Source: a virus
Lineage: Duplodnaviria; Caudoviricetes
Direction: 5' to 3' (one strand)
IMG/VR virus record: IMGVR_UViG_3300013125_000852
Span: 1 to 31,308 of that record
DNA length: 31,308 bases
Below the pieces are notes generated by a model, which had not been told where the DNA came from, searched no databases, and was given only the letters and a program-made list of their open reading frames with translations. This document shows, in pieces, positions 2,536-30,601 of this stretch. Numbering within the stretch: position 1 is the first letter of the stretch; every line of letters begins with the position of its first letter. Both the position numbers and the translations under genes were made by a program.

Positions 2536-2805
2536 CACAATGTCCTTGTGATACAATGTCCTCATGTCGCGCGCTCTCAGAGCCGCTTTACGGTCAGTGC
2601 GCGATATTTGAGGAGTCTGCATCTTGCAGGGCCGAAGTGTTTTTTCGGTCGGTTTTGGCTGCATCAACAGCCTAAACTGCTCCTCAATCAATCACCGGCT
2701 ACGAAGACAATCCGCAGATTCCGGGCGCATGCCATGCGCCCCTACCAATCGGCTGTTTCATCTGCGTCATCTGCGGTTGGTTCCCTTCTCTCCCATGCTA
2801 CATCC

Positions 2806-2994
2806 TCAGTCGCTTCCACCCTGTTTCTCGATCTCCAGCGCCACGGCCTGGCGATACAGCTCCAGCTCTGCGATCAGCCGTGACGAGCCTGACAACCCCA
2901 GCATCGAGACTTGCTGCTCCATAGCTGCAATATTCACGAGCATACTGAGTAGATTGGATGGCACTTTTTCATAGTCTATAATCGGCCGCGGCAT
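2806..2994 (-). CDS. Small helical hypothetical protein (62 aa) downstream of the fibre gene; possible fibre chaperone
   Basis: MPRPIIDYEK... with SD AAGGGGA before ATG 2994. The longer ORF-track version overlaps the fibre gene. Confidence 0.55.
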   Translation of the reverse strand: MPRPIIDYEKVPSNLLSMLVNIAAMEQQVSMLGLSGSSRLIAELELYRQAVALEIEKQGGSD

Positions 2995-3008
2995 TGTGTT
3001 TCCCCTTT

Positions 3009-5996
3009 CTATCCCGACGCGACACGCTGCACGTATATGCTGGCGTTGATGTATTGCATATATGCATTGCACGTTGTGACGGCTGGGTTCCCGGTTGCCG
3101 TGCAGTGCGGCGTGAATTGGTATGAAAATGTCCCATAGATATTCCCTTGGCTCAATGAGGCAGGCGCAACGGCCAGATCTCGCCATGCACTCAACGTCTG
3201 CTGATTCTGGCCGACATAGTAATAGGCGATGCAATATCCAGGCGCGCCGATATCTGAAAGGCATGTCCCGACTATGTTTCCGTTGTAGATCAGCTCGCCG
3301 TGCAGCCTGTATACGCTCCCGCCCACCGATGTGAACACCAAGCTCGTGCCTCTCCCATAGATCAATCCAGGAATGACCAGTTCCGTGTAGTCCGCTGTTA
3401 CCTGAGCGGTCCACGTTCGGGTTGGCTCATTGTATCGGCTACAGACATTATGGTCATAGGCCATGGAATTCAAGGATGTGAAGCATAGCGAGCCTACAAG
3501 GACCTTGTCCGGCGAAAGCAGGTTCAGCTTCGAATAGTTAGTGTCTGGCGCCTGTGTTGACAAAAAAAATGTGTCGTATCCAATATAGACATAATAGAAC
3601 GTCCCCACAGACCCGGAAACCTGCAACGTGATCCCCTCTTGCGGAATCAGCCGCATCGAGAGATCCGGAAATACGATCGTGCATGGATCGGTAAGCGGCA
3701 CGAGCTTGATGGTGTTGCTGTTCACCCGTTCCAGTCGCACTAGGATGCCCGCGGTTTTTTGCTGCTCATAAAGCATGTTCGCGGAAAGCGATGTCTGAAT
3801 CTTCGCGCTGCTCCAGGTATCGTTGAATGTCGTCGCGGAATCGTCAATCTTGAGCTGCGAGAGCGGCGCAATTTCTTTGATGAAGTTTCCCGAAAAGTGG
3901 CTCTGCGCTGTGGGCCGGATGCGAGCCAGCCATCTCGCATTGTTTCCCGGCCAGTTGCCCGACAGATATCCATTCACGGGCGCCGTGAGGCAGCAAAAGA
4001 GCGCGCCTGCGAAATCACCCCAGAATGACCTATTGTTCGCCAGATACAGATAGAGGTCTTGGTCGGGATAATCTTCGATCGCATTTAGCGGCTGTAGAGG
4101 CGCATCAGGGCTATTTTCGTCATATTCCTGGACAATATCCGTAGTCGCGCAAACGTGGACCCTGGCGTCGTCCTGATCATACGTCTGCACGGTCAAACCG
4201 GCCACATTGACCAGACCGTCCGTGCCCGTCCGCTTGGCAACCTTGAACGAGAAATCATCCACATTGACAAATCGGATGTCAGCCAACCCTGAATAATAAC
4301 TTGGGCTGATCACGGGTTGCCTGATTGCTGTCACGTCCGCGCTGGGTCGGAACATGCCCGCGCTGTCGGTCATGATTTGCCCGATATGCCGCGTCACATA
4401 GCCCGGCCACTGTTCATCGAGCCTGCCATGATCCGGCGCCTTCGGGCTCAGGAACGGCTTTAGGCGCATATCCAGCGAAGCGTCGTAATTGCCTTCCGCG
4501 GCGATGTCCTTCGAGGTCCACGGCCGATTCGTCGCGGGATTTACCGCATTGAAATTGAACTCATCCACATCGCCGGAAATGTAGATATAATGCTGCATAT
4601 TTGGCGAAAGCGCGCCCGTCTCGCGTTGGATCTTGCCCGGCGCCTCGTCGTTCCATGAGACCCACGGATCGTTGGTCGTGATGTCATACTCCACGCCCAG
4701 ATAGTGCAGGTTACCCGCGACGTAGATCTGCCCATAAGCCCCGTCGAGCAGCGCGAACCGCAAAGTGTCGCCGTCCACGAACTGGACCTGGTAATCGCTG
4801 AAATCCCTCAATGTCTCCGGGAAATTCGTGGTCCTGGATATCAAGGAAATGTCCACTTCACGGAGAAAGAACGGACCGCCTTGCTCTGTGGGCGTGTCAT
4901 CAGTCTCGACCTTGCCCACAAGCCTCGCATTGCGGCCAGGGCCGATTGTTGACAGGTAGCCATCAGTCTCGGGAGTGGTGGAGAGAAAGAGCCTGCCTCT
5001 AAAATCCCATGAGCCCCCCTCACCCTGACCCTCTCCCGGAGGGAGAGGGAAATGGACGCTGAAGGCGGCATCCCTGGAATTGGCCACGTAGATCCAATAT
5101 TCCGTTTCAGGCTGCAAAATCACCGGCAAGATGCCGGCGCTACCAATTTCAAGGGTCGGCTGTTTGTTGGTCACCGCTGCGCTGCGCTCCGCTTTCACGA
5201 ATTCGCCATTGACCCAGATCAGCCCCGAACCGCCCGGAATGGCTTCGAGGCTGATTTCGGTCGGGCTGATCCAGACCACACGCGCGTCCGGACTGACCAT
5301 CTGCAAAAAACCAGGCGGCAAATGCCGTTCAGGCTCATCATCCTCCAGCCTGGAATGCTTCTCGCGTAGCCATTGGTAGCCATTCCAGAACAGCAGGACA
5401 TTTGTTTCCACGACCGCGTGCAGCTCGCCCATCGAGCGGCCTGGATTGGGCAGGTCTGATTTGTTGTCCACGTTCCAATAGCGATGCAGCGGTTTGAATT
5501 CCTCCACCGAGGAATCCCAATAATAGAGCCTCCAGTAATATTGATTCGCGGTCGCGTCATAGAACCGGACGTTCCAAATCTCACCAAAGGGCCTCGGGCC
5601 AGTGGGCAGTTCCGAATAGGTGAGCGCAGCCCCGGCAATTCCAATCCCGATCCACTGCGTCCCGTCCCACCAGTAATCATGCTCCCATCTGCGGAACCGG
5701 CGAACATGCCCGTAGACATTCCCTTCGGGGCTCACGCGATACAATTCATCCCCGTAATTGCCGTCGCAAAAATAGGGCATGGAGGCCGTGGCCGCAGTGT
5801 TTGACGGCGGCCAATCCCCCCCCTCACCCTGGCCCTCTCCCGCGAGGGGCGAGGGAATAGCGGGCAGATCGTCAGGCGAATCCAGCGGCGGCTGCTGAGG
5901 CTGCACATAGAGCATGAGGTTGAACCGCTGCGCAAGCTGCTCCAGACCGTCGCCGTCAAGCGAAATATCGACCGCAGGCCAGAATTTAGACGACAT
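3009..5996 (-). CDS. Large tail fibre / receptor-binding-like structural protein with four internal domain repeats (995 aa)
   Basis: Lies after the tail-collar gene. Repeated beta-rich unit (YxYxxN...FLS..P..GYL...PG.NAR) and a KIDDSATTFNDTWSSAKI fibre linker. Start at MSSKF (5996); the upstream extension is translated repeat. Confidence 0.7.
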   Translation of the reverse strand: MSSKFWPAVDISLDGDGLEQLAQRFNLMLYVQPQQPPLDSPDDLPAIPSPLAGEGQGEGGDWPPSNTAATASMPYFCDGNYGDELYRVSPEGNVYGHVRRFRRWEHDYWWDGTQWIGIGIAGAALTYSELPTGPRPFGEIWNVRFYDATANQYYWRLYYWDSSVEEFKPLHRYWNVDNKSDLPNPGRSMGELHAVVETNVLLFWNGYQWLREKHSRLEDDEPERHLPPGFLQMVSPDARVVWISPTEISLEAIPGGSGLIWVNGEFVKAERSAAVTNKQPTLEIGSAGILPVILQPETEYWIYVANSRDAAFSVHFPLPPGEGQGEGGSWDFRGRLFLSTTPETDGYLSTIGPGRNARLVGKVETDDTPTEQGGPFFLREVDISLISRTTNFPETLRDFSDYQVQFVDGDTLRFALLDGAYGQIYVAGNLHYLGVEYDITTNDPWVSWNDEAPGKIQRETGALSPNMQHYIYISGDVDEFNFNAVNPATNRPWTSKDIAAEGNYDASLDMRLKPFLSPKAPDHGRLDEQWPGYVTRHIGQIMTDSAGMFRPSADVTAIRQPVISPSYYSGLADIRFVNVDDFSFKVAKRTGTDGLVNVAGLTVQTYDQDDARVHVCATTDIVQEYDENSPDAPLQPLNAIEDYPDQDLYLYLANNRSFWGDFAGALFCCLTAPVNGYLSGNWPGNNARWLARIRPTAQSHFSGNFIKEIAPLSQLKIDDSATTFNDTWSSAKIQTSLSANMLYEQQKTAGILVRLERVNSNTIKLVPLTDPCTIVFPDLSMRLIPQEGITLQVSGSVGTFYYVYIGYDTFFLSTQAPDTNYSKLNLLSPDKVLVGSLCFTSLNSMAYDHNVCSRYNEPTRTWTAQVTADYTELVIPGLIYGRGTSLVFTSVGGSVYRLHGELIYNGNIVGTCLSDIGAPGYCIAYYYVGQNQQTLSAWRDLAVAPASLSQGNIYGTFSYQFTPHCTATGNPAVTTCNAYMQYINASIYVQRVASG

Positions 5997-6010
5997 GCGG
6001 AAAATACCTT

Positions 6011-6208
6011 CCCTCACCCCGCCCTCTCCCAAAGGGCGAGGGTGAAAGATGTAACCCCTCTCCCAAGGGGAGAGGGTGAAAGATGTAATCCCTCTCTCCC
6101 CAGGGAGAGAGAACCGAGTTTGCCCTCTCCCTCTGGGAGAGGGTTGGGTGAGGGTCTCCCTGCTCTTCCTCTTTCCCCTCGCCCCCCGGGAGAGGGATGG
6201 GGTGAGGG
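6011..6208. repeat. Cluster of five family-B elements (CCCTCACCC-n3-CCCTCTCCC-n-GGGAGAGGG)
   Basis: Five CCCTC/GAGGG-type hairpins in both orientations, with a duplicated GGGTGAAAGATGTAA spacer. Confidence 0.85.
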
Positions 6209-6211
6209 CAG

Positions 6212-7453
6212 CTACGTCTTGATAATCTTCAGCACAACCGCCGCAGGATGATAGTTATTATGCGCCTCCCCGCCGCCCTGCGCGGAGATTGTATGCGAGT
6301 GAGTGCCCGTCACATTCGGAGCGTTGCTGCCCGCAGACGGCGTATAAGCGCCGGTCGCTGAAGGGGTGCTTGTGCCGGTGCTGCCGCCGTGATTGTGGCT
6401 CGGCATCTGATCCACCGTCAGAGTGACCGTCTCAGCGCCTCCGGTATTTCCCACTGCATTGCCAAGTTGAGCCGTGCCGGTCCCGCCTGAACCGACCGCG
6501 CTCCGGCGGCGAAGGTCCGGCAGATTGAACGTTGTTGAGCCGTCGCCTATACCCCATGTCGTCCCTATGGCTGTGAACAGAGCTGCATAGGTCTCACGGC
6601 TCACTGCGGAACCATCGCACGCGAGCCAGCCGTCGGGTGCTGAATCGCCGCCGTAATCCATTATCATGCCCGCGGGCAGGGTTGACCCTCCCGGCACATC
6701 CACCGCCTTCAACACCGTTCCATCGATCTTGCAGTATTTCCCATCCTCAAGATTGCCGATGGTTCTCGCTCCATCGGTCCCAGTCAACGCCACGACGGTA
6801 GGAGAGGCCGCATTGCCGCCTAATTGCCCCGCGAGTTGAACCCTGCCTTTGACCTCGGCGGTAGCGTCCGGCACAGGAGCTACCCCCACCACTGTGGTCC
6901 CGGAGCGTCCCAACAATTCACCGTCGTCTATGGCGCCCATTGATAGCGATTGCCCACCAGATTCCTTCACCCCGACCACAAGAGGCTCGTCCGCTGTGCC
7001 GCTAAAATTGCCCGCCAACTTGAGCTTACCTTTGACGTCGGCGGTGGCATCCGGCGTCGCGGTCGCGGGATACGGCCATTCCGTCCAGTTGCCCAGGATA
7101 CTGGGATCGTCGCCAGTCAGGACATAGGCCTTGGTGACATCGGACCTCAACGCCATGTCCCGCTTCTGAGCCGTCAGGGCCAGCATTTCAACCTCAGAAG
7201 CCACGCTGAAGGTATCCCCGAGCGCTGCGGGCGGGAGTTTATTCATAGGGACCTGAACGTTCTGGTCCAATAGCAACGGCCCGCCGGCTTGGTCCGCGGA
7301 ACCAACAAAATCCTCGAGCGCATCGGCTCGACCGCCCAGCGCGTCGGTCTCCTCAGCGATCGCGGCAAGATTATCATTGACCTTGTCCCACGCGGCAGGA
7401 TTCAGGTCCGGGTTCTGAGGGTCAAGACTGATTGGATCGGGAGTATATGGCAT
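6212..7453 (-). CDS. Tail fibre protein with phage tail-collar domain
   Basis: PAGMIMDYGG..APDGWLACDGSAVSRETYAALFTAIGTTWG.GDGSTTFNLPDLR and GGAETVTLTVDQMPSHNH. Duplicated PDATAxVKGxxxLAG module. Confidence 0.92.
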   Translation of the reverse strand: MPYTPDPISLDPQNPDLNPAAWDKVNDNLAAIAEETDALGGRADALEDFVGSADQAGGPLLLDQNVQVPMNKLPPAALGDTFSVASEVEMLALTAQKRDMALRSDVTKAYVLTGDDPSILGNWTEWPYPATATPDATADVKGKLKLAGNFSGTADEPLVVGVKESGGQSLSMGAIDDGELLGRSGTTVVGVAPVPDATAEVKGRVQLAGQLGGNAASPTVVALTGTDGARTIGNLEDGKYCKIDGTVLKAVDVPGGSTLPAGMIMDYGGDSAPDGWLACDGSAVSRETYAALFTAIGTTWGIGDGSTTFNLPDLRRRSAVGSGGTGTAQLGNAVGNTGGAETVTLTVDQMPSHNHGGSTGTSTPSATGAYTPSAGSNAPNVTGTHSHTISAQGGGEAHNNYHPAAVVLKIIKT

Positions 7454-7489
7454 GATTCTGTATCCCTGTGGGACAGGCTTTCCAGCCTG

Positions 7490-7705
7490 TCATTTCGCTT
7501 TGCCTTTTCTTTTCAGCGGCTCGGCAGGTTGCGCTGCCTCTATTGCCGCCAGACGCTCATGGAGCGCGGCCAGCATCGTCTTCAGTTCCTGATTCTCGGC
7601 TGCAATGGCCTCAACCTTGCGGCTCTGCGGGCTCGGCGCGGGGACTCGCCAGCCCCTTTTTTTGCCGGCCTTCATGCCTTGCGGCGGATTGTCATATGGA
7701 TTCAT
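7490..7705 (-). CDS. Small coiled-coil hypothetical phage protein (71 aa)
   Basis: MNPYDNPP...AAENQELKTMLAALHERLAAIEA; co-oriented with the operon. Confidence 0.6.
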   Translation of the reverse strand: MNPYDNPPQGMKAGKKRGWRVPAPSPQSRKVEAIAAENQELKTMLAALHERLAAIEAAQPAEPLKRKGKAK

Positions 7706-7710
7706 TTTTG

Positions 7711-7955
7711 CCCTCACCCTAACCCTCTCCCGGAGGGAGAGGGGCGGATGTAGGGGAAGTTCGCGAACCGCCCCTACCTTGTGGTGGAGGGGTGCCGGAT
7801 CATCTTCGTGACCTCACGAAGATGATCCGGCATGCTTTCCCAGCGCCCCTCGGGTTTGCTGCGCTGAATCACCGGCAAGATGCCGGCGCTACAAATACTC
7901 AAGAGTTTTTGGGAGGGGGTCCGGGGGAAGACCTTTTTGCAAAAAGGGCTCCCCC
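7711..7955. repeat. Composite palindrome cassette (B, C-like, G, A, F)
   Basis: B 7711-7743; GTAGGGG...CCCCTAC 7750-7777; perfect 19-bp stem 7793-7832; A 7872-7892; F 7923-7955. Confidence 0.85.
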
Positions 7956-7983
7956 GCTTTTCTTCCCATGGCTCGCCTCGCCA

Positions 7984-10900
7984 TTACACTCGGCTGCACA
8001 CGAAGCCCACGTCGCGGACCTTCGGAGTGCGGGCCTGGTTGGTCGTCTCCAGATAGGTGAAGGGGCGCATCTGGCTAAATTCAGCCACATTCATGGTCCC
8101 TCCATCTGTGTATTCTCCATTGCCCACGCTGTCCGCCCCGGTGTCTGGATCGACCAGCGTGACCGTATCCGCTGTAACATCCACGAGCCTCCACGTTCCG
8201 TTTGCATTGGTATTGCCGCCCACGTCCGCGATCACGGCCACTTCGTTCTCCTGATGGCCGTGGTTTTCGCTGGTCAGCACAATTGGCGTCGTGTTGGATG
8301 CGCCCGTGATTGTCGCCTCCTCCGGGGTCTGAAACTCGTGGATATAGAAATTCTCTTCAGCTCCGATGGGTATATATCCCGGCGTGGGGAGCATATCCAC
8401 CAGGTGCTCGCCATCGTCTACCGAATATTTCGGAGTAATGGACCGCACGCCATTGCCGTTTGTCCCGTCCGTATCGAGCTTTACGTAGCACGCGACTTTG
8501 TTCGGATATGCGAGCGGATCTGTGAATAGCTGATCGTTCCATACCGCGTATCCAGACGTTTCGTGGAGCAGGAACAGGATGCCCGCGATCTGTTCGAGGA
8601 TCTGGTACGAACCGCCCAGACTCGTCACGTCGATGCGCAATTGGACCTCAGTTACGATCTGCTCCAGGACCACGTCTATACCCGGCCGGAAGGGAATCCA
8701 GTCGCTGGACCCTGCAAGTGCATAGCTCCAAATCACGGTTGTTCCAGGGCCGATAAATTCGGTGACAGCTATGGCTATGCGGCTCGCGCTCACTCCCGAG
8801 ATCGCATGGAACACGATCTGGCAGTTGTTTTCAAAATTCGACTTGTAGAGCTTGTATTTCAGGTCCCGCCGCGTCCATGGGTCCCACGTTCGGCCGTTCG
8901 GGCTGTGGAAGGCCACACCGTCAGCCATCGGCGGGCCGATAATCTCGCCGGTAGCCGCGTCGATTGCGCCCAGTTCCGCGGCCCAGACCTCGAAATCGGT
9001 GCTATTGCCGCCGGGCATGGGCACAAAGCAGAATTCATTTCCCGGCTGATACCCGAGCACATGCTCGAATGTGAAAACCGTCTCAACACTGCCATCAGCC
9101 GAAACCGAAATGTCAGCAGGCTCCAGCGTGCATGAGGCCAGGACTTGCTGGCTGGGATAGCCGTTCACTACAGTCCTGATCTGGATCGTGAAGGGCTGAG
9201 TGGCCGATTTGGCAGCGAAAAACAGACCCACGGCTGAGAGGTAAGTCGCTCCCTCTGCTGGGATCAAAAAAGTCTCAGCGATCGGATCGAGCTGAGCATG
9301 TTCGCCGGTATCCACCGCCTGCGTCTGAGTCACCGTTTCAGTGCGTGTGGTGAATGTCGGAATGCCGATGCTGGTGCTCTGCGTTGTCCGAACCATTCCC
9401 GCGCCGAGGAAGGAGGCCAGCGCTCTGGAATGCGTCGGCTGGCTGTAGTGGAAAACGTTCACCGGGGCCTCGCCATTCGTCACCCCTTCGGGCATCACGA
9501 ACTTGCCTGTCAGCCGCCCGGAATTGTCCGTGGCGACCGTGGTCTTCCCCTCATAGGTATGCGTCCCGGCCGCGCCTTTAGGGTTCTCCGCTCCTGAGTC
9601 GTAGACGAAATCCGCGACCTTTCCTGCGATTGCAATCACATGGTCCGAATTCGGGACCAGGCCGTCAACTCGCACATGGACCTCAAAATCGCTGCCGTCC
9701 GGGTTTTTCGTGCGGAGCATCGGCGCGAGGGACAGATCGACCACCCTATCGCCTACGTCAACCGTGGTGGACCCCGGGATTAGCGTCGTTTGCACGCCCG
9801 AGCGTTGCTGCAGGGCCATGATGTCGCCGACCATCATGCCGATGTTCTGGCCTGGATAAGCTTCCCTCCAATTATCAACCCGTGTTTGCCCCGTATTGAA
9901 CCAATCCCCCCAAAGGACGGAGGATATCTGCGCGCCGAGGTTATCTATTGCGCTGCTCAAATTGTCGTCAAAATCGCTATTCAGGTCCGGGGCCTGGTTT
10001 TCGTCCATAAAAACTTGCACGGACGGGCTGAGCGTCATGGTGCCGTAGTAGTCCTCGATCACATAGTCCGGAGCGCAGTTGATCCTTATCGAGGCTGCGA
10101 GCTGCTGATCGAACACCTCGGGCTGGTAATCGAGCAAAATGCTGTTCCCCACCCTCCGCACATTGGTCGAACTAGCCAAGTCCACGCTTAGGAGCGCGCC
10201 CTCCCGCGTGGCAGGCAGCATCAGCGTCCGCGTCTGGCGGTCCAGGGCCGCGGTATGCCTGATCCCATTCTTATTGAATGCCATGTCCATACGCCCGAAC
10301 CCGGTGAGCGCATCAGTGAACAGGCCCTTGAAATCAACAGCCACGGGCAGGGCCGCAACCTCCTTTTCCAGGTTGTTCACGACGCTCCAATACTCGACGC
10401 GTTCCATCCTGGCCTTGAGTTCCTGGAGGTCTTCCTGCGTGAGCCGCCGGCGCTTGAGCTGGACAACACTGACGTCCGACACGTTGTACGTATACGGAGG
10501 GACCTGGACGATAGCGATCGAGAGCAAGCCCGTCTGATCGGGCGGGATCGGCGGATTTTTGGCCGCCGCGCCTGTTATCAGGCTGAAATTGCCCTGGTCT
10601 GACAGGACCAATTTGTCTATGCGGCCGAGGTAATATTCATAATCGAAATTTGGGTCCTCCTCAGGCGTCGGCCACACACCTGCCACGGTGCGGAAATCCA
10701 GACAGTCCCGCAGATTGAGCGTGGAGAATGACTCGATTTCGGCATAGAGATCATAGGAATCCGCAACCACCAAGTCGCCCTCAACCTCGTGATACCAACA
10801 TTCCAGGCTCACATAGTATGTCGCGGCAGTGATGGGCTGGCCGGTTGCTCCGCCGCCCTGTTCGCCCGCGGCCGACCAATCTATCTTGGATGTCCCGTGA

Positions 10901-22460: not shown

Positions 22461-22482
22461 GTTTGCACCACCAAATCCTTCG

Positions 22483-22543
22483 ATCCGCAGATTTCACAGA
22501 TTTTCGCGGAAAAGAATCTGCGTAATCGGCGTAATCTGCGGAT
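22483..22543. repeat. 'Empty' family-D element (inverted CGCAGATT / AATCTGCG 9-nt tandem units)
   Basis: ATCCGCAGATTTCACAGATTTTCGCGGA-AAAG-AATCTGCGTAATCGGCGTAATCTGCGGAT. Confidence 0.8.
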
Positions 22544-22550
22544 GGATCTC

Positions 22551-22757
22551 TTATTTGCTTCCGAACATTTTTTCGAGGAGCTCGCCGAGCCGTTTATGAA
22601 CGTCCCGGCGTTCCCTCACCGGCCAGCGTTTCACCTCGCTGCGTTGCTGGTGATGCCATTGGCATATGTCGAATACGGCCCGGCTGGGGCTATATATCTG
22701 ATACAGTAGCCGCCAGTTTAATCGGCCGAAGGCCGCTGCGAAATTGCCGAACTTCAC
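22551..22757 (-). CDS. Small tail assembly chaperone partner (lambda T-like position)
   Basis: GTGA overlap with the upstream stop; HHQQRSEVKRWPVRERR resembles the small pre-TMP ORF of myoviruses. Confidence 0.6.
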   Translation of the reverse strand: MKFGNFAAAFGRLNWRLLYQIYSPSRAVFDICQWHHQQRSEVKRWPVRERRDVHKRLGELLEKMFGSK

Positions 22758-23443
22758 ACCATGAGGCCCGGCAGCAAGAAAGAAGGGTCCGCAAAAAGGT
22801 CCACCACCTGTGCTTTCCCCTGTTTGTTCCGGAACCGAACCCGCGTATCATAGCCGCACTGGTTCTTGCGCATGTCGGCCCGGAGCGCCTTGTGATCGAA
22901 TCCGGGCCATTGCTTGACCGCCTCCAATTTGATATCTGTCGAGCCATTCACGCTCCGGATCGCGCGGAACGACATCCGCGTCGGCTGGAAGCCGGGCAGC
23001 TCCAATTCTTCCAGGTCCTGCGCCGCGGTCTTGTACCCGTAAACAATCTGATGACCTGTCCGGGGCAACGTGAATTTGAACGTCGGGTCCGGCCCCGCGG
23101 TCATCGCGAGGAAATCGAGCTCCTTCAAATCCACTGCATATCCGGACTCCTGGGGATCGTCATCATTCACCAATATGAGGGTGTCCCCGTAGGTCACACG
23201 ATAGATTTCAATCCCGAGGCATTTGTAATCCGGGGTCCGCAACGCCAGGACGTCATCCCGCGTAACAGGGGCCTTGTCGCCGAGCTTGGCCGTGCAGTAG
23301 GCCCAGTAATCGGGCAACGCCGCGGCCAAACCCTTATTGGATTCAGTTATCAATTCCTCGGCAAAGCTGTCCGCCTCGCGTATTACCGCCTCCAGGCCGG
23401 ACACCGGCAGCGTGACGGTTTTGGTCAAATACTGATATTCCAT
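22754..23443 (-). CDS. Tail assembly chaperone / baseplate hub assembly protein (T4 gp26-like)
   Basis: Duplicated TLPxSG/TG motif (VTLPVSG, FTLPRTG); lies between tube and TMP. Confidence 0.65.
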   Translation of the reverse strand: MEYQYLTKTVTLPVSGLEAVIREADSFAEELITESNKGLAAALPDYWAYCTAKLGDKAPVTRDDVLALRTPDYKCLGIEIYRVTYGDTLILVNDDDPQESGYAVDLKELDFLAMTAGPDPTFKFTLPRTGHQIVYGYKTAAQDLEELELPGFQPTRMSFRAIRSVNGSTDIKLEAVKQWPGFDHKALRADMRKNQCGYDTRVRFRNKQGKAQVVDLFADPSFLLPGLMV

Positions 23444-23446
23444 ATT

Positions 23447-23651
23447 CCCTCACCCCAACCCTCTCCCAGCGGGAGAGGGGAAGCTACCGGCGGGCCTGCC
23501 CCGGACCACGATCCGGGGACGCCGGCGCTGCGAAGGCATCCGCAGATTGCGCAGATTGCTGTACGGCGCGACCGGCGGTCGCCCTGGGGCGCACGCCATG
23601 CGCCCCTACCGTAGCGCCGGCATCTTGCCGGTGATTCTGTTCAATCTGCGG
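23447..23651. repeat. Nested palindrome cluster (B, A with 24-nt insert, D[C,A]D)
   Basis: B 23447-23479; A 23487-23531 split by 23495-23518; D 23538-23557; C 23561-23609; A 23611-23631; D 23643-23651. Confidence 0.85.
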
Positions 23652-23656
23652 CTGCC

Positions 23657-23878
23657 CTATTCTTCCCGGATCGCTTCCAGGGCCTGCGGCCCGAGATCGT
23701 TGAATATGAACTTCGCGGCCTCAGCCTGCGTGGTCCGGGCCAGCATTTCCTTCACCGGTCTCTCCGGATGATCGGAGAGCCGCGCTTCCACCCGACCGTC
23801 GTCCAGGACCTCCACCGCGGCATGTTCCAGCAGCGGCGAAAGCTCATCCAATTTGGTGCCCTTTTTCGGCCTTCCCAT
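23657..23878 (-). CDS. Small hypothetical phage protein (73 aa)
   Basis: MGRPKKGTK..., SD AGGGAG, co-oriented. Confidence 0.6.
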   Translation of the reverse strand: MGRPKKGTKLDELSPLLEHAAVEVLDDGRVEARLSDHPERPVKEMLARTTQAEAAKFIFNDLGPQALEAIREE

Positions 23879-23892
23879 GATTCTTCTCCCTG

Positions 23893-24044
23893 CCGGCAAG
23901 ATGCCGGCGCTGCGGAATACAAGCCGTTATCCGCAGATTTCACAGATTGCGCCGGTGTTTCGGGCCGTGTAGGGGCGCATGGCATGCGCCCTCTGGAGGG
24001 CGACCGCCGGCCGCCCCTACAGCAGTCTGCGTGAATCGGCGGTT
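23893..24044. repeat. Palindrome cluster A + D[C]D
   Basis: A 23893-23913; D 23929-23948; C 23969-24020; D-right to 24044. Confidence 0.8.
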
Positions 24045-24050
24045 GCTCCC

Positions 24051-24515
24051 CTACGCTCTTATCCGCCAGTTATTGCAGCGGCCTGTGATTTTTATCGTCA
24101 TCCGCTTCTTGCCGTCATCCGCGTCCCATTCCTCGAACTCGGCCTCCTGCGGATAGCCATCCTCCACGTCCACGGTGAATGCAGGGTTGTCCTCCGGGCC
24201 AATCGCTATGGCTGTGAAATCCCGGTAATAGAGCTTCGGGTTCCGGGTGCGCACCTGGTCCTGCCAATTCTGCCAGAACAGAATGGCTTCCTTGTTTTCA
24301 GCCGGAAGAATGACCTCGGCAGACCATGTATCCAGCTTCTCGCCGCCTGCCTGGTAGACCGCCAGCGTCTGGGCGCCCCCGTTCAATTCGACTTCTTCAA
24401 AGCTGCGCTTCCCGAGCTTGAACTTGTTCACCAGCGCGGGCGAATAACCATTGAATTCCAGCCGATATTCTTTGCCGAGCAGCGCCGTGCCTACCTGTCT
24501 CGCGTCCGTTATCAT
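24051..24515 (-). CDS. Tail tube protein (T4 gp19-like)
   Basis: FWQNWQDQV...YYRDFT...DGYPQE.EFEEWDA pattern; follows the sheath gene; SD GGAGG. Confidence 0.85.
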   Translation of the reverse strand: MITDARQVGTALLGKEYRLEFNGYSPALVNKFKLGKRSFEEVELNGGAQTLAVYQAGGEKLDTWSAEVILPAENKEAILFWQNWQDQVRTRNPKLYYRDFTAIAIGPEDNPAFTVDVEDGYPQEAEFEEWDADDGKKRMTIKITGRCNNWRIRA

Positions 24516-24590
24516 ATTGCCTCCATCACGGGCGACCGCCGGTCGCCTCTACAATCTGCGTAATCTGCGCAAATCTGCGGTTAATGCCTC

Positions 24591-26897
24591 TTATGCCGCT
24601 TGCCGCAGCCATCCAGGCAATGCATAGAGGTCTCGATAGTCCTGGAAGGGCTGGCCTGTTCTCATTACTCCCATCTCAATCGTGGGATAGAAAATTTGAC
24701 GCACCGGCTGAATCAATAGCCGGCAGCGATAAATCCCCGCGTCGATCTCAGGGCCGGTGTTCAATACCGCGCCCTTCAGTGTCCCCTCGGCCGTGAAGTA
24801 CGCGTCCTCATCGCAGACGAGCACGTATCCATAGATCGCGCCGCTGTTCAGGTCCTCCCGCAGGATAGGATTCAAAATCCTGTAGACTTCACGCCACTGA
24901 TAGGGATGGTTCGGCCGGTTGATGAACTGCAACCCGACCGGATAGAGCATCCACTGATACTCGAGGATCTTGTGGACCACGGGGAATTCACGCAGGGCCG
25001 AAAATGCCCGCTGCGATGTCCAGCCGCCCCAGATGTAAGCGCCTTCCCATCCGCGAGTTTCCAAGCTGGTGTGCAGGATGCGGCCGTTGTTGATCTGGTA
25101 TTCGGCTAACAGGTCCGCTCCCGCGCCATCCTCCGCGGGATTGTCGTCTATGGCCAGCACGTTCGGGACCTTCCCGCGTTCCACCCCGAATGGCGACCAA
25201 TGCCGGCCATGAGCGCTATCTGTTTTGCAAATGGCCGCGGCCAATGCGGGCAGACACGTGATTTCCACATTCTCGTTGTTTTTCGGATCGAAGATCGTTA
25301 TACGGCCTCGCATGAACCCGGCTTTCCACATGTTGAACGCGGCATGCTGATAACCCGCTTCCGGGTCGCCCATTCGCCAGGCCACAGTATCGGCGGCAGA
25401 CAGGCCCGCGGGGGTCGGCCCCCACCAGAATCGGCCCTTGCGAGCATCCACAAAGGTCTCGGCAGCCGCCCGCACGGTCGCGGAGCTTGTCCCGAACTGC
25501 ATGAGATTTATAAATGGCATGGACCAATGATCGGTCACATATAGGCCCGTCTTGCCCGCGGGATCGCCGATCCAGTCCGCATCGGTGAGCACCAGGGTGC
25601 CATCCGAACCGGCTGAACAGACATAGCCGGTTGAGGTCAACGCCGGCCAATTATTCGGCGCGGGGTTCGGGTCATCGTCGGTGTCCACTATCCTGCCGCC
25701 CCTGAAATGCGAATTGACATAGCCCTTCCAATAGCGGCTATTTGCCGGGTCCGGACTCAGCTCGGGATAATACGCCTCAGTCGCGCCGGGGACCACGATC
25801 CGCACATTCATGGTCTCGCCGGGATTCAGCGGCGAGTCATAGACATACAATTTGGCGCCGTTGCCGTATGCGCCCGGATGCAGCTCCAGCTTCCAGGGAT
25901 ATTTCACCGGCGGCACAGCCCCGGAATGCAGATCATTATCCAGGCCCATCGGCGTGTCCGCGGTCGAGGACGCCTGGACCTGGACCTTGGACCCGGTCCC
26001 GGACGTGCTCGATATGATGCTCAAAAAGCCCTGGAGACCATTCGCGGTCGCACCGGACAGGTCCGCCAGTTGAGCCGCCACCTGCGCGGCTGTCAGCACG
26101 AAATTACCAGTCTCGCTGTTCGCCGGGGTCAGCGGGAATGTCTGGTCCTCGCCGGCGTCTACGGCCACAACCAGCGAATCCGTGCCCACCGCATGAGTAT
26201 AAACCCCTTCGCCGAGGCCCAGAGCAGAATAAGCATCATGGGTTACGGCCATGATCTCGATGTCCTTGGCGACATCGGTGGATTCGCAATGGACCTTGTT
26301 GTCCGAAACAGTGGCATTGATCCCTTCCGTTCCGGCGTTTATATCGTCGCAGATCTGCGTTGCGGTCCGGGCTGCGCCGGGCGTCAGGGTGACGGTTTGA
26401 TCCGCGCCCCATGCGCCCTCGACGCCCACCCGCAATTTGACCTTGTCATTGACGTCCACGGTAATCGCGAACGGGCCGAGTTCGGTCCCTGTGAACCGTC
26501 CGGGCGTTGCGGGGCTGAATGTGAATGGTCCGGCCGCGCTGTCCACTTGGGCATGAGTCGGCACATTGCCGCCCCGATCCGGGATGAGCGCCGACGCCGC
26601 TACAACATCCACGGTCGAGCGATCGCTCACGTCCGAACAATGCGCGATACGATGGAAGACGATATTTGCGCCCGCCTTCAACGCCTCGATGCACTGAATC
26701 GGATCCTGGGTCCAATCCACCGAATCGCCATACATCTCGATGAACCGCGCGATGTCCTTCGCGGTAAACGCATTGCCGTCCCAGAGCGGGCCTCGTGAAG
26801 CCTGGCCGTAGACGCCGATATATGACTTGGGGATCGGCTCTGCTTCATAGCTCAAATCGAACAGCGGGAATAATACTCTCGGGTCGCCTAAGCTCAT
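24591..26897 (-). CDS. Contractile tail sheath protein with inserted domains (768 aa)
   Basis: GQASRGP, PGAYGNG, DWIGDPAGKTGLY, WSPFGVERG, YIWGGWT, YVLVCDE and LLIQPVR motifs; SD AGGAGGTG. Confidence 0.92.
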   Translation of the reverse strand: MSLGDPRVLFPLFDLSYEAEPIPKSYIGVYGQASRGPLWDGNAFTAKDIARFIEMYGDSVDWTQDPIQCIEALKAGANIVFHRIAHCSDVSDRSTVDVVAASALIPDRGGNVPTHAQVDSAAGPFTFSPATPGRFTGTELGPFAITVDVNDKVKLRVGVEGAWGADQTVTLTPGAARTATQICDDINAGTEGINATVSDNKVHCESTDVAKDIEIMAVTHDAYSALGLGEGVYTHAVGTDSLVVAVDAGEDQTFPLTPANSETGNFVLTAAQVAAQLADLSGATANGLQGFLSIISSTSGTGSKVQVQASSTADTPMGLDNDLHSGAVPPVKYPWKLELHPGAYGNGAKLYVYDSPLNPGETMNVRIVVPGATEAYYPELSPDPANSRYWKGYVNSHFRGGRIVDTDDDPNPAPNNWPALTSTGYVCSAGSDGTLVLTDADWIGDPAGKTGLYVTDHWSMPFINLMQFGTSSATVRAAAETFVDARKGRFWWGPTPAGLSAADTVAWRMGDPEAGYQHAAFNMWKAGFMRGRITIFDPKNNENVEITCLPALAAAICKTDSAHGRHWSPFGVERGKVPNVLAIDDNPAEDGAGADLLAEYQINNGRILHTSLETRGWEGAYIWGGWTSQRAFSALREFPVVHKILEYQWMLYPVGLQFINRPNHPYQWREVYRILNPILREDLNSGAIYGYVLVCDEDAYFTAEGTLKGAVLNTGPEIDAGIYRCRLLIQPVRQIFYPTIEMGVMRTGQPFQDYRDLYALPGWLRQAA

Positions 26898-26899
26898 GA

Positions 26900-27259
26900 T
26901 TATTCACCTCCTGCATATTCCCGGCGTTCAATCCAGCCGAGCTTTTCCCAGGCAAAAATCTGTTTCGTGAGCAGCTTTTTCAAAATCGGCCCGCTGACAT
27001 GAATGTCCCGGCCTGCGCATCGCGGCCCCAGATTGATATGAGTCCCATCGCGCAGCGGGCACGCAAGCGGCTGTTTGGATTTGTTCACCAGGATGCAATA
27101 GTCGGTTCGTAGCGCCGGCGCCTTGCCGGTATCTGCGGCCGGCTTTTCCCCCTCACCCTGGCTCTCTCCCGCCAGGGGAGAGGGGGGGCTTTTCTCTTCC
27201 ATAGCGCCGGCATCTTGCCGGTACTCTTCTTCTTCTTTGGCCTTATTTCTTGTGGCCAT
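26900..27259 (-). CDS. Small pre-sheath phage protein carrying three in-frame palindromic repeats
   Basis: SD AAGGAGG before ATG 27259; C-terminal LVNKSKQPL...INLGPR domain; repeats at 27109, ~27149 and 27201. Confidence 0.7.
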   Translation of the reverse strand: MATRNKAKEEEEYRQDAGAMEEKSPPSPLAGESQGEGEKPAADTGKAPALRTDYCILVNKSKQPLACPLRDGTHINLGPRCAGRDIHVSGPILKKLLTKQIFAWEKLGWIERREYAGGE

Positions 27260-27276
27260 GAGGCCCTCCTTATTTT

Positions 27277-27471
27277 CCCTCACCCCAACCCTCTCCCAGA
27301 GGGCGAGGGGGTTTTGATCGTTATTGCTGCCGGGGTGCGGAAGTCATTTTCAAATTGAAAATGACTTCCGCATGCTTGCTCAGCGCCCCAGGGCCGAATC
27401 ACCGGCAAATACACAAAAGTCTTTGGGAGGGGGCCGCGGGGGAAGACCTTTCTACAGAAAGGGCTCCCCCG
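27277..27471. repeat. Composite cassette B-H-(A remnant)-F
   Basis: B 27277-27309; H 27336-27372; GGGCCGAATCACCGGCAA; F 27438-27470. Confidence 0.85.
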
Positions 27472-27472
27472 C

Positions 27473-28078
27473 TTACACTCCTATCTGCAAATCGAACTCT
27501 CTTATGCCGAGCGCCTGGAATGCAGCCTGGCGTTCAACCCACACGTTCGAGACTCGATACCGGACCGCAGTCCGGTAGAACGGCTTTTCAAGCTCATCCA
27601 GGTCCTCCGGGCTGCCTGTGCTGATCATCAGCGGAGCTCCGAATTTGTTGCCGTCGATCTGCAACCGAAACGGCACCGGAAATGCTTCGAGAAGCATCAG
27701 GAACAGCGCGGTGTCCTGATCGTCCGCCACGCTGTAGCAGTCCACCTGGTAGAAGAGCTCCAGGGGGATCGGCCACCATTTCCATTCCCAGGACGCCGGG
27801 CCAATGAACTCCCCGCCGCCGAATTCAGTCTCGGGAATGGTCACCGTGACCTGCTCGTCAGACGGCGTGAAATACTCGAGATGGTTCCGGCAGGCATCCA
27901 AATCGATTCGAGCTTTCATGTATCGAGACAGACTGATGCACGGCGGAATCATCTCGCCTTTCTCACGATCCGGGCCAAGGCCGTGAATGGGCATCGGCTG
28001 AACTACCGGCGGGACGCCGGCGCTACATTTGATTCGGCCGAGCCGGTCCAGAATATATGCATCAACCAGTTTGATCAT
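27473..28078 (-). CDS. Tail terminator / sheath cap (Pvc16/gp15-like)
   Basis: PCIS and PIPLELFYQVDCYS motifs; lies just upstream of the sheath region. Confidence 0.65.
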   Translation of the reverse strand: MIKLVDAYILDRLGRIKCSAGVPPVVQPMPIHGLGPDREKGEMIPPCISLSRYMKARIDLDACRNHLEYFTPSDEQVTVTIPETEFGGGEFIGPASWEWKWWPIPLELFYQVDCYSVADDQDTALFLMLLEAFPVPFRLQIDGNKFGAPLMISTGSPEDLDELEKPFYRTAVRYRVSNVWVERQAAFQALGIREFDLQIGV

Positions 28079-28089
28079 GATTCCTCTGT

Positions 28090-28144
28090 GTGGGGCAGGC
28101 TTTCTAGCCTGCCTTCACCTGCCAGGCTGGAAAGCCTGGCCCAC
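28090..28144. repeat. Inverted pair of family-E elements (GTGGG-CAGGCTTTC-AGCCTG)
   Basis: 28090-28113 and 28122-28144; the same arrangement recurs at 29373-29426. Confidence 0.8.
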
Positions 28145-28146
28145 AT

Positions 28147-28713
28147 TCATTTGAATGTCTTCTCCACCGCTTCCTGATAGATCGACACTACCCGGGGCGC
28201 AGTCTCTGTCTCGGTCGGCGCCATGAACGGCCGTGCAGGGATTTTCCGTTTCGACGAACCGAACTCATGCACCGCTGCAATGTTTGTCTCGCCGGCTTTG
28301 CGGATCACGGTGACGGCCCCGCGGTCCCATTGTTTTGTCCGATATCGGATGCCCGATATCAGCTTTCCGGTGTCGATCAGGAGCTGATTGCCTCCGGCAG
28401 CCAGCCTAAGCGCCAAATCGCCCTTGCTCTCTGTAGCGCCAAACCCGAGGCCCCTTTCGGCCAGCCTCCCGCTTAGTTTGGCCCTGGACATGCGCCTGAG
28501 TTTCCCCGCGGTTTTGAGCATCTTTCTGATCCGGTATTTCTCGCTGAGTGGCGGCCACCCCAAATCCTGGCTCTCGATATGTTTCACGGCCGTGGTCTCG
28601 ATCAAATGCCCGATCTGATCCGTGGCTTCACGGACATTGGCCTTGAACCGTTCGCCAATGCCGGCAAACATCCGTTCTAGCTTCGCCCAGTCGCCGTATT
28701 TCTCAGCGCCCAT
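28147..28713 (-). CDS. Virion morphogenesis / tail completion protein (Mu gpG / HK97 gp10-like)
   Basis: WPPLSEKY..RK, LIDTGKL..I and AAVHEFG...IPARPF motifs. Confidence 0.85.
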   Translation of the reverse strand: MGAEKYGDWAKLERMFAGIGERFKANVREATDQIGHLIETTAVKHIESQDLGWPPLSEKYRIRKMLKTAGKLRRMSRAKLSGRLAERGLGFGATESKGDLALRLAAGGNQLLIDTGKLISGIRYRTKQWDRGAVTVIRKAGETNIAAVHEFGSSKRKIPARPFMAPTETETAPRVVSIYQEAVEKTFK

Positions 28714-28724
28714 CGGAAATCCTT

Positions 28725-28825
28725 AACCGCAGATTGTAGGGGCGACCGGCGGTCGCCCTGGGCGCATGCCATGCGCCCCTACATCATTCCGGAAAAATCT
28801 GCGGCCATCTGCGAAATCTGTGGTT
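28725..28825. repeat. D[C]D nested element
   Basis: AACCGCAGATT-[GTAGGGGCG...CGCCCCTAC 28736-28782]-AATCTGCGGCCATCTGCGAAATCTGTGGTT. Confidence 0.82.
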
Positions 28826-28939
28826 GATCTTCTCCGTCCAGGTCCTCTCCACATTTCAACGAAAGTGCGTTGCATCTCGTTTCCTACACGTTTCCTAGGT
28901 CCACGGCGTAAGAGAGGGCGGGCGACCGGCCGCGGCGCT

Positions 28940-29359
28940 CTAATCGCCGTAGGTGAATTCCGTGGCCGGGGCCGACTTGTTCAGCTCGACCGCGCGTCTC
29001 AGAATGACCTCCACCTGGTTATGGATGCCCGCTATGGGCACGGTGTGGTCCTTGATGACCTCATCAACCACCAGGTCCCACCGTTCATTCCCGATCAGGA
29101 AATGATCCGAAGCCTCCACCGCAGTCCCGGCTGCATCCAGGTCCCGTTTCAACAGAGTCAGCCGCCGAATGCGCTGGTCCCGGATGCCTGCATGGTCCAC
29201 CAGCAGGCCCTGATCGGTCGCGGGGTCGATGTCCTCCATCATCCCGACCAGATCGTGCTCCGCGCCGGTGGCCTTCACCAGCGTCACTGCATCGCCGGCC
29301 AGAAGGTCATGGACCTCATCCAGCGCCTCTGAGATTTCCTGTTTTTCGGTCGGGTCCAT
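28940..29359 (-). CDS. Head closure / head-tail joining protein
   Basis: Size, synteny and DHFLIGNERW beta-barrel-like pattern. Confidence 0.6.
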   Translation of the reverse strand: MDPTEKQEISEALDEVHDLLAGDAVTLVKATGAEHDLVGMMEDIDPATDQGLLVDHAGIRDQRIRRLTLLKRDLDAAGTAVEASDHFLIGNERWDLVVDEVIKDHTVPIAGIHNQVEVILRRAVELNKSAPATEFTYGD

Positions 29360-29372
29360 TTCACTGCCTATT

Positions 29373-29426
29373 GTGGGCCAGGCTTTCTAGCCTGGCGTTT
29401 GCGGAAGGCTGGAAAGCCTGCCCCAC
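29373..29426. repeat. Inverted pair of family-E elements
   Basis: GTGGGCCAGGCTTTCTAGCCTGGC...AGGCTGGAAAGCCTGCCCCAC. Confidence 0.8.
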
Positions 29427-29433
29427 ATCAATG

Positions 29434-29841
29434 TCAATCTATCCGCACGATGCGCGGCTTCGGATATCCAGGCGGCAACGGCCGGTCCAGATCTTCCGGC
29501 GCGGCCTCTTTTGCGGCCAGCTTCACCTGGTTCTTGAGCTGCTCCTGCAGCGCTTTCAGAAACTCGATCGCAGCCTCATATTCCGCTTCGGATGCTCCGC
29601 CCTTCGCTCGTTTGAGCCGTTTGGCCTGGCTGAAGGTCAACAGGAGGCGGGGAATGAGCGCCTGCGTCGCGAGAACCGAGATATAGACCTTCTGCTGTTC
29701 GGTGATCGTGGCTGCTCCGTATTGCTGGAGCTCCATCTGAGCTTCCACCTGCCGGGTGATGATCGCATCCGTCAGCGTGGGATCGAGCGCCAGCACCGCG
29801 TCGAGCTGGTCTTTCACGAGTTGCACTGCATCAACAGCCAT
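29434..29841 (-). CDS. Head-tail adaptor (neck) protein
   Basis: Helical 135-aa protein with KRAKGGASEAEY beta-hairpin-like motif; synteny after the capsid gene. Confidence 0.6.
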   Translation of the reverse strand: MAVDAVQLVKDQLDAVLALDPTLTDAIITRQVEAQMELQQYGAATITEQQKVYISVLATQALIPRLLLTFSQAKRLKRAKGGASEAEYEAAIEFLKALQEQLKNQVKLAAKEAAPEDLDRPLPPGYPKPRIVRID

Positions 29842-29853
29842 CGAAATCCTCTA

Positions 29854-29981
29854 CCGGCAAGATGCCAGCGCTACGAATACAATCCCGATCCGCAGATTTC
29901 ACAGATTTGCTGTAGGGGCGCATGGCGTGCGCCCCAGGGCGACCACCGGTCGCCCCTACATAATCGGCGTAATCTGCGGTT
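29854..29981. repeat. A + D[C]D nested element
   Basis: A 29854-29874; D 29888-29908; C 29912-29959; D 29961-29981. Confidence 0.85.
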
Positions 29982-30525
29982 ATTTCTTCCTCTTTTCATG
30001 TTCCCGCTGCCATTCCGCGACAGCGATCTGCACCGCGATATTGTGCTCGCTGGTGCGGCTCTTGACATTGAGGCCCAGCCTCTTGGCCCTGGCGCGGAGC
30101 TGCGCCACGGTATTCTCCTGTTTGAGCGTCTCGACCCGGCGCTCGATCACAATGTCTCGGGCCGCGGCCAATGCTTCGGGCGTGGTGGGCAGAGATGCCG
30201 CAGCGCCGGCGTCTTGCCGGTCTTCTTGCATCTCTGCCTCATGCGCCACGGCGCCCGGGTCCGCAGACTCCGCTGGCGCTGCCGGACTTACGTCCGGGTC
30301 CTTCTCGCTCCCTCTCCCCTCGCGGGAGAGGGACGGGGTGAGGGACGCATCCGCGGGCGGATCGGCGTAGATCAGGCTGCGAGTGTCCAGCCGCTGAGCC
30401 GTCAGGCTCCCGGCCGGCACGACTTCCGGAAGCTGCTTTATCTCTCCCGGTCGAATGTGGAACCCCAGTTCCCGGTCATAATGCTGGCCGTGCTCCGACG
30501 CCAGCTTTACCCATTTCCGTTCCAT
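29980..30525 (-). CDS. Post-capsid accessory protein with low-complexity linker and Rho-N/HeH-like C-terminus; two in-frame repeats
   Basis: TVAQLRARAKRLGLNVK motif; repeats at 30200-30220 and 30310-30344. Confidence 0.65.
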   Translation of the reverse strand: MERKWVKLASEHGQHYDRELGFHIRPGEIKQLPEVVPAGSLTAQRLDTRSLIYADPPADASLTPSLSREGRGSEKDPDVSPAAPAESADPGAVAHEAEMQEDRQDAGAAASLPTTPEALAAARDIVIERRVETLKQENTVAQLRARAKRLGLNVKSRTSEHNIAVQIAVAEWQREHEKRKK

Positions 30526-30601
30526 TTCAGTACCCCTACCGGCGGGACGCCGGCGCTACGCCCCCACCCTCCCTCTTCCGCAAGGGGAGAGGGTGATGGC
30601 A

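Follow-up and report, generated by a model that had tools for sequence, protein, structure and literature searches.

Short palindromic repeats of several families crowd the gene junctions of a Mu-like temperate phage

The window analysed here (the whole stretch of DNA, 31,308 nt) holds one end of a prophage and its late operon (here and below, the strand is given where one was assigned):

1518..1565, right end of the Mu-like prophage, where an 18-bp repeat occurs twice in direct orientation (1526-1543 and 1548-1565)
1733..31288, minus strand, late operon with capsid, neck, sheath, tube, tape measure, baseplate and tail-fibre genes, a Dam-type methyltransferase gene and a Cys-rich ORF, which we take to be com-like

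Two records, G006 and G077, span the phage, whose length is ~61.6 kb; G006 and the window were 99.99% identical over the 16.7 kb compared, and G077 and G006 99.97% identical over 13.4 kb. The phage is a Mu-like temperate phage, sharing with Mu-like transposable phages MuA, MuB, Gam, GemA, Mor, gp27, end repeats and a terminal adenine methyltransferase, and its ends appear to match. The MuA-type DDE transposase, with a Mu C-terminal domain, and the MuB-like ATPase were both called in G077. The host is most likely a Desulfomonilaceae bacterium. The prophage right end breaks a host ORF (1170-1544), and contig pieces from 4 of 4 sequencing runs begin at 1517-1518. The two 18-bp repeats are likely transposase binding sites. 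The motif AGAACCGGACA is common to both ends, lying equally far from the left end in G077; the left end begins with TG and the right with TA, and the flanks of the two records have no 5-bp duplication in common. The phage exceeds in size the cultured phages whose MuA matches best (25-42 kb). Junction DNA in the window amounts to ~2.9 kb, and the extra length is thus only partly explained by repeats; many ORFs of the early region lacked a Pfam match.

Clusters of repeats from the families A, B, C1, C2 and D to H lie between the genes (> and < mark the orientation of D):

2711..2776, D>, C1, <D (motif scan and fold)
6011..6208, B hairpins as one long stem (z -8.7)
7468..7491, plus strand, single E, a GTGG-footed REP (motif scan, hairpin fold)
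7711..7957, mosaic of B, C-like, H, A and F
12900..13024, D> [A-type pair] <D
14448..14690, three D, a C2/C1 dimer, H and F
16156..16338, D, F and C
16506..16691, G, A, F and D
17574..17717, D, C1, A, C1 and A2
22483..22543, D>D> ... <D<D<D, cargo-free
23447..23651, B, A-like, D> [C2 C1 A] <D
23893..24045, A, D> [C1 C2] <D
24530..24580, C2 and three D
27277..27471, B, G and F
28090..28144, inverted E pair, REPIN-like
28725..28822, D> [C2 C1] <D<D
29373..29426, inverted E pair
29854..29979, A, D> [C1 C2] <D
30539..30593, A and B, past the capsid gene

All 19 cluster starts given in a preliminary description of this DNA agreed with motif matches or with the sequence, two of the clusters falling within one 567-bp interval. 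From the methyltransferase gene to the major capsid gene, 18 of the 25 junctions between called genes carried repeats, and the seven bare ones were all short, as had been described (13, 9, 1, 8, -4, -4 and 2 bp). The count thus bears out the statement that open junctions are saturated, but that statement is partly circular: orthologous junctions in relatives are short or overlapping (at the site of 28090..28144, a 4-bp overlap in 7 of the 9 relatives scored), and the gaps were therefore made by the repeats. Nor is the load confined to the late operon. The late clusters are real, but the early region is loaded too, and more densely (17.5 against 8.4 clusters per 10 kb), while the immunity end has no cluster in 3.6 kb.

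Strand matches were compared with 10 Markov-1 simulations, giving, observed against simulated, 14 and 0 for A, 8 and 0 for B, 9 and 0 for C1, 5 and 0 for C2, 26 and 1.2 for the D 8-mer, 6 and 0 for E, 8 and 0 for F, 4 and 0.2 for G, and 4 and 0 for H. One copy of each, folded as a single-stranded DNA hairpin, gave z from -2.2 to -10. REPs are defined by GTAG or GTGG 0-2 nt 5' of a 7-20 bp stem with a 2-5 nt loop (PMC6006769); A, C and E have this shape (8-bp stems, 3-5 nt loops, an unpaired foot), and the foot is absent from B, D, F, G and H. Mosaics of D and C recur ~10 times, and their inverted D ends match the ends around GxxExxY genes; MITEs are recognised by terminal inverted repeats in common with an autonomous element and by target-site duplication, and the D-bounded mosaics may be of this kind. 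By its sequence, 22483..22543 looks like an empty GxxExxY cassette. Rfam gave no match, terminator-like sites (a stem, then a U run) were not enriched at 11400-31300 (11 observed, 17.2 in shuffles), and one composite cluster had no match below an E value of 0.06 among 50,697 GenBank phage records. The variant GTACGGCGCG, considered as proof of copying inside the phage, was dropped as an argument because a near match exists in G051 (L398), a chromosome discussed below.

Repeats also lie inside genes; 10 further copies, missed in the preliminary description, were found within five coding sequences of the window:

5017..5049, B, in frame in a tail-fibre gene, ~13 extra residues compared with two orthologs
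5123..5143, minus strand, A, in frame in the tail-fibre gene, without a clear gap against orthologs
5821..5855, B, N-terminal extension of the tail-fibre ORF
17825..17845, plus strand, degenerate A, C-terminal extension of the baseplate spike gene
27109..27221, plus strand, A, B and A, all in frame, N-terminal linker of a 119-aa gene (26900-27259)
28006..28026, minus strand, A, in frame in a 201-aa gene adjoining the neck gene, an insertion compared with nine orthologs
30200..30344, A and B, both in frame, linker of a 181-aa gene

In two relatives the linker of the 119-aa gene carries hairpins of other families, and in relatives that of the 181-aa gene contains other repeat-coded peptides. Over the phage, in-frame insertions compared with orthologs were seen in MuA, portal, lysin and other proteins. 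By mechanical ORF calls, 42 of 115 copies lie within ORFs in the phage, compared with 19 of 146 in chromosome stretches.

The preliminary description had proposed that equal repeat density in host DNA would point to passive spill-over. The prophage was instead denser than every chromosome stretch examined. It has 62 clusters in 61.6 kb, compared with 16 in 200 kb of G051 (12.6-fold), the nearest host relative, and 36 multi-family clusters compared with one; since G051 is only 85% identical at cysK, these 13- to 70-fold figures compare different species. Multi-family clusters were rare in chromosomes (1 in 200 kb, 0 in 160 kb). The one within-genome comparison, of the G066 prophage with its own chromosome, gave a 3- to 4-fold excess with broad patterns and 20- to 25-fold with one F pattern, in a setting where fragmented assemblies lose repeats. 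Among 70 genomes of the family, none came close to the phage level for A, B or C1: A occurred in 16 (maximum 80), C1 in 6 (maximum 12), and B reached 223 exact copies in G067, 5.6-fold below the phage. E in chromosomes is known from fetched stretches. As side observations, a degenerate F-like copy lies at 1122-1144, past the host cysK gene, and mosaics exist in chromosomes (L397).

Repeat load in related phages follows the host. Related prophages in repeat-poor hosts were bare (G005, G009, G020 and G024), as was a MuA/MuB element of the repeat-poor G065, and the one in the repeat-rich G066 carries the F and D-like families of that genome. The same junctions hold other families in related phages and differ even between the close relatives G073 and G074, so the lack of polymorphism that had also been named as a sign of spill-over was not found. 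On the sheath tree, the loaded phages need 3-4 changes, with different families. Two unrelated phages, G078 and the integrase-bearing G080, are loaded too. A single sheath protein searched against genome contigs returned no relative, but an alignment search did find relatives.

As guessed in the preliminary description, RAYT, DUF559, GxxExxY and DinD-like genes do accompany families in Desulfomonilaceae chromosomes, namely E, sisters of A, and B, D and H. In G051, inverted E copies lie on both sides of a Y1_Tnp gene (L406), and A-sister hairpins flank Y1_Tnp genes at L404, L405 and L421. No RAYT gene flanked by exact A or C was found among 32 loci around Y1_Tnp matches, nor seen at six C1 loci viewed without a family scan. 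B flanks a DUF559 gene in one clear cassette (L132), D flanks GxxExxY genes as inverted ends in two (L134, L136), and H lies inside dinD-like fragments. Flanking does not prove DNA movement, and on this arrangement DUF559 and GxxExxY are possibly repeat-spreading enzymes. For F, no partner gene was evident at eight loci from Clostridia and Desulfovibrionaceae viewed without a family scan; G was in none of 122 genomes of the class, and none of the 120 loci listed in a 16-mer scan had its full palindrome. The two records spanning the phage contain no Y1_Tnp, DUF559 or GxxExxY gene. The single undescribed deposition system proposed earlier is not what these data suggest, as a separate host gene goes with each traced family and the phage is without those genes.

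The copies themselves, the partner genes in related chromosomes and their absence from the phage, the enrichment and the lineage-specific insertion were observed directly, and we consider it fairly probable that host enzymes deposit the repeats in trans and that the phage accumulates copies wherever they are tolerated. RAYT tyrosine transposases of the host would likely copy the GTAG/GTGG hairpins, host DUF559 and GxxExxY nucleases may copy B and D, and copies would likely be kept where harmless. Per site, repeats might be deposited faster, or purged more slowly, in phage DNA: it would undergo additional replication through single-stranded forks, its genes would lie silent in the lysogen, and small genes and flexible linkers abound in it. 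Hairpins already in place may draw in more copies; the nested D>[C1-C2]<D mosaics so formed would then be copied or converted as units, and selection would purge copies from folded domains and from most of the coupled junctions. Until tested, any effect of the repeats on mRNA decay or translation is best treated as a by-product.

It could instead be that selection keeps junction hairpins for stabilising mRNA or tuning translation, and thereby setting the ratios of proteins, with any host family serving; we find this unlikely. Three baseplate junctions (spike>gp25, gp25>J and J>tail) are loaded in nearly all loaded relatives, in most of them by different families, which could be a sign of selection. 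In the window, folding gave z <= -4.6 for 12 of the 18 RNAs from junctions, and several junctions have an inner D arm followed by AGG(A) and a start codon. About 15 of the 18 clusters start within 15 nt of a stop codon, a closeness that is partly trivial because the junctions are short; PMC12306157 (citing Liang 2015) reports REP translational control in E. coli at distances within 15 nt of the stop. However, relatives keep the same operon working with overlapping junctions, and terminator-like sites are not enriched. The higher density of the early region and the share of copies inside ORFs (over a third) argue against this role, and weaken in particular the late-mRNA-specific purpose suggested in the preliminary description.

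Slightly less likely again is plain spill-over, in which the host is extremely repeat-rich and the prophage merely mirrors it. The B copies of G067, the F-like copy past cysK and the chromosomal mosaics would fit, all of them from relatives or the flank, but the 70 family genomes, the enrichment within G066 and the scarcity of chromosomal multi-family clusters speak against it. Replicative transposition as the specific cause, whereby a Mu-like genome copied within the chromosome, beside REP-rich targets, collects repeats, appears quite improbable. The phage is Mu-like, a MuA/MuB contig of G066 carries the same repeats, and a Pseudomonas transposable phage inserts beside REP-like sites, according to PMC5977238; yet G080 and G078 are loaded and the MuA/MuB element of G065 is bare. 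A dedicated single system, phage-encoded or unknown, that deposits all families, or a set of operators for one phage regulator, is very improbable: early ORFs without Pfam matches, the partnerless F and G and the recurrent D and C mosaics could be read that way, but the families are unrelated in sequence, are spread over host chromosomes with different partners there, and dispersed repressor operators were rejected on the empty immunity end and the swapping of families in relatives.

Building on deposition by host enzymes in trans, a wider proposal is doubtful and offered tentatively: several classes of host-dependent mini-elements, some of them spread by DUF559 and GxxExxY nucleases instead of RAYTs, might breed and travel chiefly in temperate phages of repeat-rich anaerobes. 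Inside the phage they would nest into composites providing a stop codon, a hairpin and a ribosome-binding site. These would open up coupled junctions and give virion and transposase proteins extra peptides, and with the phage they would pass from host to host.

Known REP, REPIN and BIME elements with their RAYTs (PMC3733652, PMC6006769) resemble A, C and E in being GTAG/GTGG-footed 8-bp hairpins, single or in inverted pairs. They too lie mostly just past genes, some in frame, with several families in mosaics, and are RAYT-flanked, as E is. Unlike them, the repeats here fill a phage genome to a density of ~1 cluster per kb and are mixed with the non-REP families B, D, F, G and H; the text of PMC3733652 has no word beginning with "phage" or "prophage". 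Neisseria mosaic intergenic arrays (dRS3 and others; PMC3733652) likewise interleave families in one space, but are chromosomal, whereas here most phage junctions are occupied. Rickettsia palindromic elements and other intragenic repeats (PMC3184786, PMC3733652) add peptides in frame to termini and linkers, as here, where, unlike in Rickettsia, virion and transposase proteins are affected and independent families occupy orthologous linkers. In the Pseudomonas fluorescens group, mobile elements lie in REP-devoid regions, or "REP deserts" (PMC3390384); the same comparison of mobile element with chromosome has the opposite sign here, the prophage being denser. Our literature search, with most subscription papers outside it, turned up neither REP-saturated phages nor any link of repeats to GxxExxY or DUF559.

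To our knowledge, phage DNA is usually free of such repeats. The load described here is the reverse of that pattern, and it runs opposite to the "REP desert" cue by which acquired DNA is flagged. For the open question of the spread and usefulness of REP-like repeats, this phage of ~62 kb and ~60 clusters offers a compact system in which insertion rules, tolerance and function can be tested, with relatives both bare and loaded and with independent insertions at orthologous sites. The repeats add peptides to phage proteins, suggest DUF559 and GxxExxY genes as candidates for enzymes that spread repeats, and mark the host lineage of the phage.

Variation within the source samples was viewed in contigs of runs X1-X5 (X1 and X2 are perhaps the source of the window; X5 contributes a small share only). 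None of the joints listed removes one cluster and rejoins its flanks; in runs X2-X4, long pieces show 0-1 letter differences from the window, and the joints listed join repeat to repeat.

The preliminary description placed 19 clusters of short palindromic repeats in the window (families A to H, of which A, C (C1/C2), and E are GTAG/GTGG-footed hairpins and the others lack such a foot) and held that they occupy the open gene junctions of a phage late operon. Both claims stood: all 19 clusters were present, and in this minus-strand operon 18 of the 25 junctions between called genes were loaded, while the other seven measured 13 bp or shorter. Every family was far above the Markov control in the window, one copy tested per family folded as a hairpin, and 10 further copies lay within five coding sequences. 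Cross-matches indicated an internal domain, with a Flagellin_IN match, common to the sheath (24591-26897), a DUF4815 protein (7984-12879), and a head-region protein (L082, 2396-3388).

Two virus records together span the phage. G006 was 99.99% identical to the window over the 16.7 kb compared, and G077, 99.97% identical to G006 over a 13.4-kb overlap, continued through the early genes. These records encoded Mu gp27, Mor, GemA, Gam, a MuB-like ATPase, a DDE transposase with a Mu C-terminal domain, and an S24 repressor. The motif AGAACCGGACA was common to the left end of G077 and window position 1518, at equal distance from the end, and contig pieces began at 1517-1518 in all four runs. Given the Mu-type genes, matching ends, and contig starts, the phage is Mu-like and about 61.6 kb long. 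The features around its end in the window were as follows.

166-1104, cysteine synthase gene (cysK) of the host
1733-2380, minus strand, Dam-type methyltransferase gene, at the phage end
2335-2691, minus strand, Cys-rich ORF without a family match, adjoining the methyltransferase gene

A Cys-rich ORF before a Dam-type methyltransferase is presumably the com-mom layout of Mu. The best named matches of cysK were Desulfomonilaceae (87% and 84%), with one unplaced record at 94%, and the nearest of 70 genomes of the family was G051, at 85% DNA identity in the cysK region. At 1518 the phage end interrupted a host ORF (1170-1544, minus strand) that weakly matched Metal_resist and had a syntenic counterpart after cysK in G051. 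Directly 3' of the cysK stop, a degenerate F-like hairpin (1122-1157) suggests that the host carries family F. In contigs of runs X3 and X4, the phage was nearly identical, yet the host cysK region was another allele, which suggests that the phage moved recently with its repeats intact.

Along the phage, clusters per 10 kb numbered 8.4 in the late region, 8.9 in the head and lysis region, and 17.5 in the early region, and the 3.6-kb immunity end had none (about 3.6 expected, P about 0.02). A D>[C1-C2]<D unit, bounded by inverted D copies, was seen about 10 times, and G006 and G077 supplied 19 of the 41 stretches that matched family A exactly in IMG/VR. By mechanical ORF calls, 42 of 115 copies in the phage lay well inside long ORFs, compared to 19 of 146 in chromosome stretches. 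In-frame copies were insertions relative to orthologs in MuA, the portal, the lysin, the tail fibre, and three smaller genes, and relatives carried other repeat families in the same protein linkers. One early ORF of 384 aa (L216, 9222-10373, minus strand), without a Pfam match, was made up in considerable part of A, B, and C repeats.

Among sheath relatives, 7 of 17 were loaded, and the loaded or bare label needed 3 to 4 changes on a sheath tree that left out two loci, L083 and L090. In L083 the sheath match was broken by about 120 bp (8697-8819), possibly a small insert or an intron. Orthologous junctions held different families in different loaded relatives, and junctions loaded in the phage were overlaps in relatives, and vice versa: portal-protease measured 117 bp in the phage, -4 in G073 and G075, and 571 in the repeat-rich genome G066, and terminase-portal -16 in the phage and 142 in G066. 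Even the close relatives G073 and G074 differed at four junctions. Since junctions loaded in one phage overlap in another, the gaps were created by the repeats. Of the three other C1-bearing virus records fetched, two were unrelated phages in which many junctions held C, either together with D or by itself; one of these two carried integrases, so transposition is not required for loading.

Families A, C, and E are REPs under the definition quoted in PMC6006769. In G051, E stood on both sides of a Y1_Tnp (RAYT transposase) gene, and sister variants of A flanked Y1_Tnp genes in G051 and G034. B flanked the sole DUF559 gene found among five genomes. In G034, D copies in inverted orientation bounded GxxExxY genes; G068 had a one-sided trace of D, and the GxxExxY match in G051 had no flanking D. 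H lay within dinD-like fragments, three of three tested matching NF008573 below its whole-protein cut-off. No partner gene for C, F, or G was found in the chromosomal loci examined, Rfam gave no match, and Y1_Tnp, GxxExxY, and DUF559 were absent from G006 and G077. The families are thus parts of distinct host cassettes, and these three genes are missing from the phage. From their flanks, DUF559 or GxxExxY proteins would be candidate movers. Long tandem runs of E-like GTAG hairpins surrounded the RAYT genes of G067 and G068 (L419, L411).

PMC3733652 and PMC3184786 already describe REP families, mosaics, and copies within genes. Mobile elements of Pseudomonas are REP deserts according to PMC3390384, the opposite of this repeat-dense mobile DNA, and the transposable phage in PMC5977238 is tied to REP-like sites as targets, whereas here the repeats lie inside the phage genome. 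Our literature search found no report of phages saturated with such repeats. The repeat loading is real, striking, and recurrent; its parts are known or half-known, and the place and degree are new.

We consider it probable that host enzymes deposit the repeats in trans and that the phage retains more of them than the chromosome does. The substrate of Y1 transposases is single-stranded DNA at forks (PMC6006769), which phage replication would provide; purging would be slowed by gene silence in lysogeny and by many flexible linkers, and existing hairpins would draw in further copies. Selection of the repeats for mRNA control, unlikely in our view, could account for three convergently loaded baseplate junctions and for repeats near stop codons (compare PMC12306157), but the early region is denser than the late, copies lie within coding sequences, relatives are compact, and there is no terminator signal. 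Plain spill-over from an unusually repeat-rich host is, to us, about as unlikely.

Identical patterns gave 20 A, 13 B, 19 C1, and 26 D matches in the 61.6-kb phage versus 26, 18, 10, and 2 in the 5.7 Mb of G051, a relative of the host and not the host itself; among the 70 genomes, the richest for A lay 22-fold below the phage and the richest for B 5.6-fold. In G051, ten 20-kb stretches chosen blind to repeats held 16 clusters, one of them multi-family, compared to 62 and 36 in the phage. A related prophage occurred in 5 of the 70 genomes. In that of G066, most junctions carry the F and D-like families of the same genome, at a level 3-fold (broad patterns) to 25-fold (one F pattern) above eight blind chromosome stretches, which begin at contig ends and so have inflated counts, while broken assemblies deflate whole-genome counts. 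ABC-three-component defence-like genes adjoin this prophage (L154, 846-4283), and an extra small gene between its sheath and tube genes (L153) encodes what we take to be an HU/IHF protein. Families A and B are missing from G005, G009, G020, and G024, and there the prophage genes were compact and bare, but these are imperfect controls, being distant from the phage (sheath about 35%) and, in at least two cases, without early genes nearby. The head-tail modules of G020 (L163, 2-6502) and G024 (L164, 13798-18923) begin next to the same two host genes, a sensor kinase and a sigma-54 regulator, without intervening early genes, and are possibly domesticated or GTA-like.
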